Positions 2,550 through 5,789 of a DNA stretch of 64,000 nucleotides are shown here, piece after piece. The translations under genes and the position numbers were made by a program. How positions within the stretch are numbered: the stretch's first letter is position 1; the number at the start of each line of letters is the position of its first letter. Source of the stretch: Leptolyngbyaceae cyanobacterium (GTDB lineage Bacteria > Cyanobacteriota > Cyanobacteriia > Phormidesmidales > Phormidesmidaceae). Under the pieces are notes generated by a model, which did not search any database, had not been told where the DNA came from, and worked only from the letters and a program-made list of their open reading frames with translations. The stretch is taken from NCBI GenBank assembly GCA_965263355.1, contig CBDHHL010000048.1:160001-224000 (forward strand), read 5' to 3'.

Positions 2550-2846
2550 ATGACCACGCCGTTTGAACAGTTAGGGATTGCTCCAGAGGCTAGTGCCAAA
2601 GAGATTAAACGGGCTTACCATGCCAAATTGAAAGAATTTCCGGCCCACACCCATCCCGAGGAGTTTAAGGCGATTCGAGCTGCCTACGATGCTGTCCGCC
2701 AGGGTAGTACCGTCACGGTAGAAGAGTTCTTTAAACGCAAGCCGTTAGAGGCTAGTTTTGACGATAAGATCCTGACTAGCCTTAGGGAGCAGGCCACTGC
2801 TAAGATCCAAGTTGACCTGAAAACCCTGACCCGTCTTACCTTTTAG
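2550..2846 (+). CDS. Small J-domain protein with non-canonical HPD loop
   Basis: PFEQLGIAPEASAKEIKRAY...FKAIRAAYD J-domain pattern; PAH at the HPD position, HPE four residues later. Confidence 0.85.
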   Translation: MTTPFEQLGIAPEASAKEIKRAYHAKLKEFPAHTHPEEFKAIRAAYDAVRQGSTVTVEEFFKRKPLEASFDDKILTSLREQATAKIQVDLKTLTRLTF

Positions 2847-2856
2847 CGATAACGTA

Positions 2857-3348
2857 ATGTCTCAGACTCCTCGCGATCGCATCGCCCAGCGTCGCCAACT
2901 GCAAAAGCAGCAATCCCAGATCTTTTTAGACTTGTTGCCAGTGCTGGATGATTTAGACCGTGCCTGTAACCATTGGCAACAGGCACAGCAGTCCCAAGAA
3001 ACACCTGTGGAGAAGAAAAGTTCGGTACCTTGGTGGCGTAAGATATTTAACTGGAACACGAGCCAGACTCTTGACCAATCCACCGAACTCAATGCCATGG
3101 TCAAGAGTGCCCATGACGGTGTGTCCCTCATTCGTCAGTCACTACTGGAGGTATTGGAGCGTCAGGCGGTCACCCCCATTGAAACCTTAGGTCAGCCATT
3201 TGACCCTAAACATATGAATGCCATGGGTCGAGAAGCGAGTCCTGATACGTCTCCTAATACGGTGATTAAAGAAATTCTCAAGGGATATCGCTGGCAAGAT
3301 CGGGTGTTAAGAGAGGCTCAGGTAATTGTTGCAGACAGGTCTAAGTGA
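2857..3348 (+). CDS. grpE: GrpE-family nucleotide exchange factor, N-terminally shortened
   Basis: LLPVLDDLDRA, GQPFDPKHMNA, KGYRWQDRVLREAQVIV motifs. Confidence 0.9.
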   Translation: MSQTPRDRIAQRRQLQKQQSQIFLDLLPVLDDLDRACNHWQQAQQSQETPVEKKSSVPWWRKIFNWNTSQTLDQSTELNAMVKSAHDGVSLIRQSLLEVLERQAVTPIETLGQPFDPKHMNAMGREASPDTSPNTVIKEILKGYRWQDRVLREAQVIVADRSK

Positions 3349-3379
3349 AATCTATCGAATGCCTAAATTCATCCCTACA

Positions 3380-3404
3380 GTAGGAGCATTGCATACAATG
3401 CCCC
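3380..3404. repeat. Degenerate GTAG-type REP-like palindrome
   Basis: gtaggagcattgcatacaatgcccc, similar to 2490-2517. Confidence 0.6.
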
Positions 3405-3449
3405 ATCCAACCAGATTTTTTTACCTTATAAAATCCCTATCTCTAGACT

Positions 3450-5021
3450 ATGGCCATTATCGGTATTGATCTCGGTACGACTAATTCTGTTGTTGCTGCC
3501 CTGGAAGGGGGGCAACCCTGGGTAATTCCGGATGATGATGATGAACTGCTGCTACCCTCCTGTGTGGGTTTAGACAATGGTGGCAAGCTATTGGTAGGAG
3601 ATTATGCCCTACGACAATATGCCTCTGCGCCAGAGCGTACCATCAAGTCCATTAAGCGTCAGATGGGAACAGACTATGAGGTCACACTGGGTGAGCAAGT
3701 ATATTCCCCCCAGGCAATTTCAGCCATGATTTTGCGCACCCTGAAGGAACAGGCAGAAACCGTCTTGGAAGAGCCAGTGACCCAAGCGGTGATTACGGTG
3801 CCTGCATACTTTACCGATGCCCAGCGGCAGGCAACCAAGGAAGCTGGAGAGATTGCGGGGCTAGAAGTATTACAAATCTTAAATGAGCCTACCGCTGCCG
3901 CCTTGGTTTTCGAAAACCGTAGTGAAGATGGGGAAACGGTTTTAGTATATGACCTTGGTGGAGGCACCTTTGATGTCTCAATTGTGGACATTACCGGAGA
4001 TGTAACAGAGGTATTGGCCAGCCATGGTAATAATCGCCTCGGTGGAGACGACTTTGACCGCCAGCTTCAGCGTCACTTAATCAATAAGTTTCAGCAGATC
4101 AACGGCGAGAGTTTACCTGACGACCCGGCGATTGAAGCACGACTATTACGGGCGGCAGAAACCGCCAAAATTGAGCTGAGTGAGCATGGATTTGTGGCAG
4201 TCAGGGAACCATTTTTGGTCAGCCAGGGGAGTACGGCCTTACACTTGGAAACCGAAATTGCCCGAGAAGATTTTGAGCATTTGATTACGCCCATGCTCAA
4301 GGAAACGTTGGAGGCGATTGATCGCGCCCTGAGTGATGCATCTATGGCAGCCAACGATCTCAATCGGGTTGTGTTGGTGGGGGGCTCCACCCGGATTCCA
4401 CTGGTACAACGGATGGTGCAAAACCATTTGTCAGGGGTACCTGTGAGTAGTTTTGAGCCAGACCTCTGTGTGGCGATGGGGGCAGCGGTGCAGGCGGGAG
4501 TTCTGTCTGGGGCTGAAATCGAGTCGATTTTGGTGGATGTTGTGCCCCATTCGTTGGGGATTGCGGTCATGATGGATGTGGGCATGGGCATGCCCATGCC
4601 TGGTATGTTTAGTACGATTATTCCGAGGAATACGGTGATTCCGACATCTCGCTCTGAGGTATATAAGACCTCTAGAAACAATCAGGAGAAAGTGGAGATA
4701 GAGGTTTATCAAGGGGAGAATGCTATTGCTAAGGAAAATGTCCCCTTGGGCTCTTTTATGGTTGAGGAGTTACCGCCTAAACCGGCGGGGGCAATCCAAG
4801 TGGAGGTGACGTTTGATTTTGATATTAATGGGATTTTGACGGTTACCGCGACGGAAAAGGGTGCGGGAAAGCAGGGGTCTCTGGTGGTGAATGATGCGGA
4901 TACAGGACGGTTGTCTAGCAATGAACTGCTCCAGGCGCAGGAGAGTCTGGAGCAGTTGTTTGACCTAAGTAAGAGTCCTTTGATGGATGTGTTGGCTAGC
5001 GCAGTTGAAGAAGAAGAATAG
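3450..5021 (+). CDS. Hsp70-family chaperone, short HscC-like paralog lacking most of the helical lid
   Basis: GIDLGTTNS, ITVPAYF, NEPTAA, DLGGGTFD, LVGGSTRIP, YQGE motifs; 523 aa, ends shortly after the SBD-beta domain. Confidence 0.95.
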   Translation: MAIIGIDLGTTNSVVAALEGGQPWVIPDDDDELLLPSCVGLDNGGKLLVGDYALRQYASAPERTIKSIKRQMGTDYEVTLGEQVYSPQAISAMILRTLKEQAETVLEEPVTQAVITVPAYFTDAQRQATKEAGEIAGLEVLQILNEPTAAALVFENRSEDGETVLVYDLGGGTFDVSIVDITGDVTEVLASHGNNRLGGDDFDRQLQRHLINKFQQINGESLPDDPAIEARLLRAAETAKIELSEHGFVAVREPFLVSQGSTALHLETEIAREDFEHLITPMLKETLEAIDRALSDASMAANDLNRVVLVGGSTRIPLVQRMVQNHLSGVPVSSFEPDLCVAMGAAVQAGVLSGAEIESILVDVVPHSLGIAVMMDVGMGMPMPGMFSTIIPRNTVIPTSRSEVYKTSRNNQEKVEIEVYQGENAIAKENVPLGSFMVEELPPKPAGAIQVEVTFDFDINGILTVTATEKGAGKQGSLVVNDADTGRLSSNELLQAQESLEQLFDLSKSPLMDVLASAVEEEE

Positions 5022-5068: not shown

Positions 5069-5108
5069 AACCGCGTCGGGGCGTTGCATGCAACGCCCCG
5101 ACGCGGTT
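5069..5108. repeat. Perfect 40-bp palindrome (REP-like), possible terminator of the chaperone operon
   Basis: aaccgcgtcggggcgttgca/tgcaacgccccgacgcggtt exact reverse complements. Confidence 0.85.
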
Positions 5109-5362: not shown

Positions 5363-5789
5363 ATGGCCGTTCCCGATATCTACACTTGCCGAGCGGTTTT
5401 TAGACACACTGACCGCTTCGTTTGAGTCTCCAGCCAAGCGCCCGGTGGTCTTTCATATTTGGGGCTTGGGCTTAGCCATTAAACCCGACCTACACGAAGC
5501 ACTCTATAACAAGGGCATTTCGTTGGCTAATCTGGGCCGATACGAGGACGCCATCAACGCCTATGACCAGGCCCTTGCCATCAAACCGGACTATCACAAC
5601 GCGCTCCATAACAAAGCCTGTGCCAACGCTCTTTCTAACAAGCCTGACGCATCTCTGACATTTCTCCAAAAAGCAATTGAGCTTGCCCCTGAAAAATATT
5701 GCGAACTCGCCAAAACCGACACCGACTTCAACAATCTTCGCAACAACCCACGTTTTCAGACCCTCATCACCAGCTCTGAATTAACCTGA
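5363..5789 (+). pseudogene. Remnant of a probable P-loop NTPase-TPR protein (frameshift plus internal deletion), leaving two C-terminal TPRs
   Basis: ATG at 5363 out of frame with ...AERFLDTL..RPVVFHIWGLG, which joins directly to LAIKPDLHEALYNKG TPR repeats and a typical cyanobacterial TPR C-cap (AKTDTDFNNLRNNPRF). Confidence 0.6.

Follow-up and report, generated by a model that had tools for sequence, protein, structure and literature searches.

In the DnaJ-DnaK interface described in passages of PMC8215388, H33 of the J protein binds the backbone of L391, P34 touches P419 and D35 binds R167 and Q378, and the loss of either His33 or Asp35 abolishes stimulation in all of the systems reviewed there. 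Passages of PMC7289447 describe R167 of DnaK as a latch on D393 and D481, propose that D35 of DnaJ pulls R167 off these residues, and report that changes at R167 raise the basal ATPase activity and blunt the stimulation by the J protein. The initial annotation of the present locus, made from its letters alone, had named D35 and R167 as direct partners and R167H as a suppressor of D35N, in agreement with the passages of PMC8215388 and PMC7289447, respectively. In passages of PMC13012618, D35N rescues R167A, and simulated signal paths bypass D35-R167. D35 and R167 are called invariant in the literature; a 2026 review gives HPE as the sole tolerated variant and calls the meaning of other departures from HPD enigmatic (passages of PMC13254874), and the final set of a large J-protein census excludes sequences without the full HPD (passages of PMC10410713).

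Among the described systems, E. coli HscC with DjlB and DjlC resembles the pair studied here in that a specialised Hsp70 has private J partners (passages of PMC8215388). The likeness extends to the short loop of the J domain, which can be aligned gap-free, to deletions in lobe I of the NBD and in the D211 loop, to an insertion in loop L1,2 and to a short C-terminus; in the tree, HscC branches next to this family, although on long branches. In the same passages, HscC keeps R167 and is without the GrpE signature, whereas the Hsp70 of this locus has Gln at 167 and keeps the 290-295 loop. DjlB and DjlC carry HPE, are 475-483 aa long and are described as tail-anchored, whereas the J protein here is 98 aa long and carries PAH. 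The present operon also contains GrpE and TPR genes, and its Hsp70 keeps the GrpE signature loop, whereas HscC is described as using no GrpE. With a GrpE and without HPE, the system is not a member of the HscC/DjlB-DjlC group.

The catalytic residues and the predicted docking site are the same as in DnaK-DnaJ-GrpE, but the J protein is without the client-binding domains of DnaJ, and the Hsp70 falls below the DnaK equivalog cut-offs. In the engineered pair of DnaK R167H/A and DnaJ D35N, the D35-R167 ion pair is likewise lost on both sides; the pair described here differs in that it is natural, is fixed in approximately 100 sampled loci and is also without His33 and Pro34. Type IV (pseudo) J proteins such as Pam16 and DnaJB13 combine, as does the J protein of this locus, a J fold with a non-conservative replacement of HPD (passages of PMC13254874), and by this sequence definition the latter is a type IV J protein. 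Unlike in those cases, genes for a private Hsp70 and GrpE lie beside that of the J protein, and a matching change is present in the Hsp70; the same passages name no bacterial type IV case of this kind. In AtcJ-AtcC of Shewanella, a short J protein likewise has a C-terminal tail that binds an operon partner, but the J domain of AtcJ is functional and serves the general DnaK, and there is no private Hsp70. The operon is not described in the passages of PMC10410713, PMC11019930 and PMC13580251. A literature search, mostly of papers outside subscription, returned nothing on a TPR–J–GrpE–Hsp70 operon, nor on an R167Q pair that occurs in nature. Operons of this kind may be described by Barriot et al. 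2020.

The operon and its gene products

The operon lies at the start of the window, which is the whole stretch of 64,000 nucleotides that was analysed, and comprises genes for a TPR protein, a J protein, GrpE and an Hsp70, in this order and all on the plus strand. The large TPR/helical-repeat protein (positions 1-2493) is an ORF of at least 830 aa with Pfam TPR matches, and its frame is open at the window start. The mini J protein (2550-2846, 98 aa) consists of a short-loop J domain and two C-terminal helices, the dedicated GrpE (2857-3348, 163 aa) scores 107 bits against Pfam GrpE and falls under each NCBIfam GrpE equivalog cut-off shown, and the specialised Hsp70 (3450-5021, 523 aa) has a short lid. 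A homologue of the TPR protein is present in 128 of the 132 cyanobacterial J loci; the protein is likely a client adaptor or a client, and from the gene order alone we infer a link between it and the tail of the J protein. Judged by its sequences, the chaperone set is likely to be privately wired. A search for a second J gene in the window returned one match, the mini J protein itself, and no conserved HP[DE] that might serve as a hidden HPD is found in 54 aligned rows of the TPR protein (best column, 16/54). PADLOC gives a single match, to the Hsp70 fold only, and promoter and terminator counts in the window are at chance level. A 25-nt intergenic repeat occurs in three copies (2490-2514, 3380-3404 and 5075-5099), the third of which lies within a perfect 20-bp hairpin 3' of the Hsp70 gene. 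A short TPR fragment is present downstream at 5445-5789 on the same strand as the operon, and a small TPR gene likewise lies 3' of the Hsp70 gene in another locus (L001).

The mini J protein scores 25.3 bits (E 1.7e-5) against Pfam DnaJ, below the cut-off of 27.8. Its predicted structure (pLDDT 79) contains helices at residues 4-8, 16-29, 36-60, 72-84 and 90-97, and the top matches in a fold search with this model are J domains, each with E > 0.001. Profile, model and fold matches, the last with weak E-values, agree on the helical fold of a J domain. At the helix II-III loop, the protein reads PAH instead of HPD or HPE: the codons at 2640-2648 encode Pro-Ala-His at residues 31-33, as had been noticed in the initial annotation, and counting from AY sets PAH on H33-P34-D35 of DnaJ. 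The segment FPAHTHPEEF aligns without gaps to DjlB/DjlC (HPETDPQGF) and to PPE-type relatives (FPPETHPEEF); in pairwise alignments with long-loop J domains, the register wavers by one residue. On the gap-free alignments, the assignment of PAH to the HPD register is firm. A contig from a second sample, whose run may be the window's own source, shows no difference at the PAH or Gln142 site, and neither is an assembly error. In the 75 nearest J proteins, which were retrieved by a word-based, motif-biased search, PAH is read in 72, PGH in one and PPH in one, and one is unparsed. None of the 117 cyanobacterial J cores has His at position 33 or an acid at position 35, and the columns that are conserved in the sister clade but altered in cyanobacteria are 34, 35 and 36. 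The docking face is retained in these cores, with K22, Y25, F47 and R51 invariant and K48 present in 116/117.

Gln had also been placed at the position of Arg167, and the alignment to E. coli DnaK (NC_000913.3) bears this out: CAA at 3873-3875 encodes Gln142, which corresponds to R167. The Hsp70 keeps the catalytic residues D8, K70, E171 and T199 and the allosteric residues P143, R151 and D393, in addition to L391 and P419, and the docking face (E206/D, E217, L391, P419 and D477 in DnaK numbering) is conserved. The interdomain linker (4521-4538) aligns with that of DnaK; L391 and D393 are kept, and L390/L392 are replaced by I/V across the family. In place of the R167 and DVLLLD linker of the DnaK equivalog, the protein has Q142 and ESILVD, and its scores are below the DnaK equivalog cut-offs (548 vs 648 for PRK00290 and 546.7 vs 822.55 for TIGR02350). 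From these features, it looks like a working, specialised enzyme.

All 120 of the nearest Hsp70s have Gln at 167. A comparison of columns in 16 canonical DnaKs, 77 sister Hsp70s and 100 cyanobacterial Hsp70s gives Q at this position in 98/100 cyanobacterial members, R/K in 77/77 sister members and R in 16/16 canonical DnaKs. There are 117 columns with at least 90% identity within the canonical DnaKs as well as within the sister clade, and only 4 of them are changed in cyanobacteria, namely R167Q, A258T/I/V, P293A and I501V. Host-type DnaKs were taken from five relatives of the window's organism; ordinary DnaKs are also present in these genomes, and R167 is found in 14/14 of those read.

The Hsp70 of the window stops early in the lid (4900-5021). 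The 96 complete cyanobacterial members fall into 30 of 481-544 aa and 66 of 570-608 aa, which indicates a subgroup without most of the lid. A nine-residue Met/Gly-rich insertion (approximately 4570-4600) extends the L1,2 loop of the substrate pocket, as in HscC, and may set client specificity. Two divergent Hsp70s (L286 and L314) carry the family motif with Ala at 167 and NEPS, and no J gene is in range of either.

A model of the complex of Hsp70 residues 1-510, ATP, Mg and the J protein scores 0.73, and the best of three controls scores 0.00; the pass mark is reached by 116/157 solved pairs and 2/215 mismatched pairs, counts that apply roughly here. Because a similar DnaK–J complex (5NRO) has already been solved, the pass may reflect no more than resemblance to it. 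At least 36% of the contacts recur between model runs, and the partner pLDDT is at least 64. The modelled interface is formed by residues 142, 182-185, 351-362, 396-400 and 458-459 of the Hsp70, which include linker residues 358 and 360-362, and by residues 20-43 of the J protein. PAH faces the linker and the P419 site, and A32 is placed on P398 and L361 of the Hsp70, as P34 is on P419 in DnaK. The interface names Hsp70 142 and J 31-33, and the 142-33 pair is absent from the 25 best-resolved contacts. The docking site in the model is thus the canonical Hsp70 site; the model is silent on stimulation and specificity.

Residues 35 and 167 in the family

Among the best 150 J profile relatives, the triad is read in 144 (one parse is spurious, and six are unparsed), as PPE in 74, PPD in 19, SPE in 12, PAH in 5 and other motifs in the rest, with His first in none and an acid last in 130. 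The non-acid motifs PNQ, PPQ and PPH also occur among J relatives. In the wider family, His33 is thus replaced by Pro, Ser or Thr while R167 stays. In one operon with the same gene order (G027), the J protein reads PPD; the 120 closest matches to the Hsp70 of this operon, whose named sources are Gammaproteobacteria, Desulfobulbaceae and Magnetococcales, have R at 167 in 112 cases and K in 4, and 4 are unreadable. A class search around this operon gave no further family J in 47 genomes.

The motif HGNNxLGGDDFD is common to cyanobacterial and sister Hsp70s and served to sample metagenome loci without regard to the motif in the J protein; at least 120 were found, 80 with flanks. These 80 loci contain PPD with R (26), PPE with R (12), TPE with R (1), PPE with K (1), PAH with Q (3), a degenerate J with R (1), ordinary HPD operons with R (8), a J only (1), neither (6), or an Hsp70 site without a J in range (21; R 17, Q 3 and A 1). 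In this blind sample, residue 167 is basic in 40/40 PP[DE]/TPE pairs and Q in 3/3 PAH pairs. As read from the sequences, the loss of His33 is family-wide and older than R167Q. Covariation of the whole HPD with R167 was considered and rejected, as the wider family without His33 is still basic at 167. At one locus (L416, G414:C44), the gene of an HscC-like Hsp70 with R167 precedes that of a J protein of 485 aa that reads SPE, which indicates that the HscC branch, too, includes J domains without this His.

The loss of acid-35 together with R167Q is, by the same sequence comparison, a cyanobacterial step. In the best 80 of 155 genome loci, drawn with patterns that favour PAH, every J protein reads PAH, and the 59 Hsp70s in range have Q in 57 cases and R in 2 (L024 and L061), so that PAH is paired with Arg167 in these two. 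After identical Hsp70s and those shorter than 400 aa were dropped, 128 non-redundant pairs were obtained, four of them linked by genome and not by adjacency. The 34 sister pairs, a set without the Hsp70s of SAR324-type lineages, whose J proteins are the nearest acid-bearing kin of the cyanobacterial ones, have the residue 35-167 states D-R (21), E-R (12) and E-K (1), and the 94 cyanobacterial pairs have H-Q (88), A-Q (3), Q-Q (1) and H-R (2). The paired alignment of J proteins and Hsp70s proposed in the initial annotation gives a linkage, with a non-acid and Gln in 92/94 cyanobacterial pairs versus an acid and a basic residue in 34/34 sister pairs (the HscC-like L416 among them), but this linkage reflects one concordant event only.

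Four genomes (G410, G443, G470 and G495) have J proteins that read PPQ or PPA and resemble P0084 and P0086, clusters with Prochlorothrix names, and their family Hsp70 lies elsewhere and has Q167. In these split operons, TPR-J is found at G410:C4, G443:C315, G470:C349 and G495:C29, and GrpE is alongside the distant Hsp70 in three. At a further locus (L364), the J protein reads RCH and the Hsp70 has Q167. Since three different residues (H, Q and A) are found at position 35 alongside Q167, and PAH occurs with Arg in L024/L061, a strict His-Gln lock-and-key is unlikely.

In trees built with column 167 excluded (FastTree, 198 rows; IQ-TREE quick, 54 rows), the cyanobacterial Hsp70s form one clade, with a support of 100 in IQ-TREE, and the non-acid J proteins form one clade versus their nearest acid-bearing, SAR324-type kin (100/99, 38 rows). 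On the trees, acid-35 changes once and residue 167 twice. Of the two independent pairs that result, one is concordant and the other discordant; these are too few for a test, and the covariation lacks statistical support. The Hsp70s of L024/L061 nest inside the cyanobacterial clade, and a placement outside is not rejected (AU p 0.30), so that reversion and retention of Arg167 are indistinguishable in these two. The earlier statement that both sides of the interface changed together thus holds for acid-35 and Q167, which arose on the same branch, and not for His33, which was lost while R167 stayed. More independent events were sought via six non-acid J relatives (P0118, P0142, P0167, P0196, P0219 and P0216), and none was gained; a search for two of these on plasmids gave no match, and a search of viral contigs found nothing.

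With 0.40 changes per column, the stem of the cyanobacteria is a long branch on which unrelated changes also fall, and Q and R are one nucleotide step apart (CAG/CGG). That a column named beforehand falls among the 4/117 changed columns has a chance of approximately 3% by simple proportion. The case for pairing, as a matter of sequence, is one of the specificity of the changed columns and not of event counts.

Interpretation of the joint change

We lean towards the reading that the J protein still docks on and triggers the Hsp70 of the window and that the ion pair has been given up jointly by both sides. In the DnaK reference state, Arg167 would keep both linker and substrate domain latched and would be pulled away by Asp35 of the J protein; Gln167 with Asn481 would leave this latch weak, so that no acid would be required on the J protein. 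The latter would only have to dock by its conserved face and exert pressure on the linker, as in the laboratory suppressor pair of R167H/A and D35N, and the TPR protein would likely be an adaptor or client tied to the J tail. The route would have two steps, in which His33 was lost first across several phyla and the ion pair then in cyanobacteria. Under this mechanism, a host HPD-type J protein is predicted to stimulate the window Hsp70 poorly, and the PAH J protein to give no stimulation of the host DnaK1-3. That the locus encodes a naturally evolved Hsp70/J pair which is insulated, has full activity and fires without His33 and without the Asp35-Arg167 ion pair, is proposed tentatively.

The mini J protein may instead be a type IV pseudo-J that serves as a docking tether or as a brake and holds the Hsp70 at the TPR protein without triggering hydrolysis. 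Gln167 would then allow the client or the TPR protein to fire the Hsp70 in the absence of a J signal, and position 35 would be conserved for another contact. The absence of both His33 and the acid is consistent with such a role, as are the effects of Arg167 changes on basal and J-stimulated ATPase activity in the passages of PMC7289447, the position of the J gene beside the TPR gene even where GrpE-Hsp70 is elsewhere (the four split operons), and the tolerance of Arg167 by PAH in L024 and L061. However, the sister pairs keep acid-35 and basic-167 in 34/34 cases without His33, which suggests that a His-less J protein is active there, and the retention of the ATPase core and a private GrpE implies a regulated cycle; we regard a tether or brake as fairly unlikely. 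The long stem, the single nucleotide step between Q and R, and a single event with a discordant second one would also be expected if the two substitutions were unrelated passengers on one long branch, in a pair that works or cross-talks without compensation. This is unlikely in view of the approximately 3% proportion for the named column, the clustering of the J changes in the loop facing residue 167, and the direct partnership of 35 and 167 in the solved complex.

The initial annotation had offered the alternative that the HPE downstream of PAH (2652-2660) is a functional motif in a shifted register; in short-loop J domains, this site is the xPxxF turn. The window does contain HPE, and the register moves by a residue in one of the pairwise alignments, but the motif is exact in only 24 of the 117 cyanobacterial J cores, where the turn otherwise reads HPQ (33), YPE (30), HPK (7) or others, with Tyr for His in 42 and Q, K or another residue for Glu in 62. 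DjlB/C carry DPQ at this site beside their true HPE, and PAH, not HPE, faces the linker and the P419 site in the model. As a functional motif, the downstream HPE is scarcely credible and was rejected.

If the reading of a fully active, insulated pair is true, the "invariant" HPD-R167 chemistry would be a lock removable on both sides, not a catalytic trigger, and the operon would constitute an orthogonal chaperone module that may supply an Hsp70 without cross-talk to host chaperones. The window pair would be a natural test of an Hsp70 switch whose charged pair is thought essential. Cultured cyanobacteria and their relatives provide a graded natural series (HPD/R, PP[DE]/R, PAH/Q, PAH/R, and PPQ or PPA/Q), which would allow the roles of His33 and the D35-R167 pair to be separated.

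A second known DnaJ-DnaK contact, between J residue 48 and Hsp70 residue 477, also shifts pairwise by pair counts, with K-D in 88 cyanobacterial pairs and E-S (13), E-R (6) and R-D (2) in sister pairs. The charges are apparently swapped (E-R) in one sister subgroup (L231, L236, L238, L251, L281 and L284) and apparently restored (R-D) in another (L260 and L298). J profile matches at 1e-14 are found in 47 of the 401 sampled genomes of the class, and copies of the module are present on Nostoc and Acaryochloris plasmids, which indicates that the module is accessory. L002 and other Acaryochloris plasmids (H52-H56) carry several copies, in which some of the Hsp70 genes are unannotated or fragmented.
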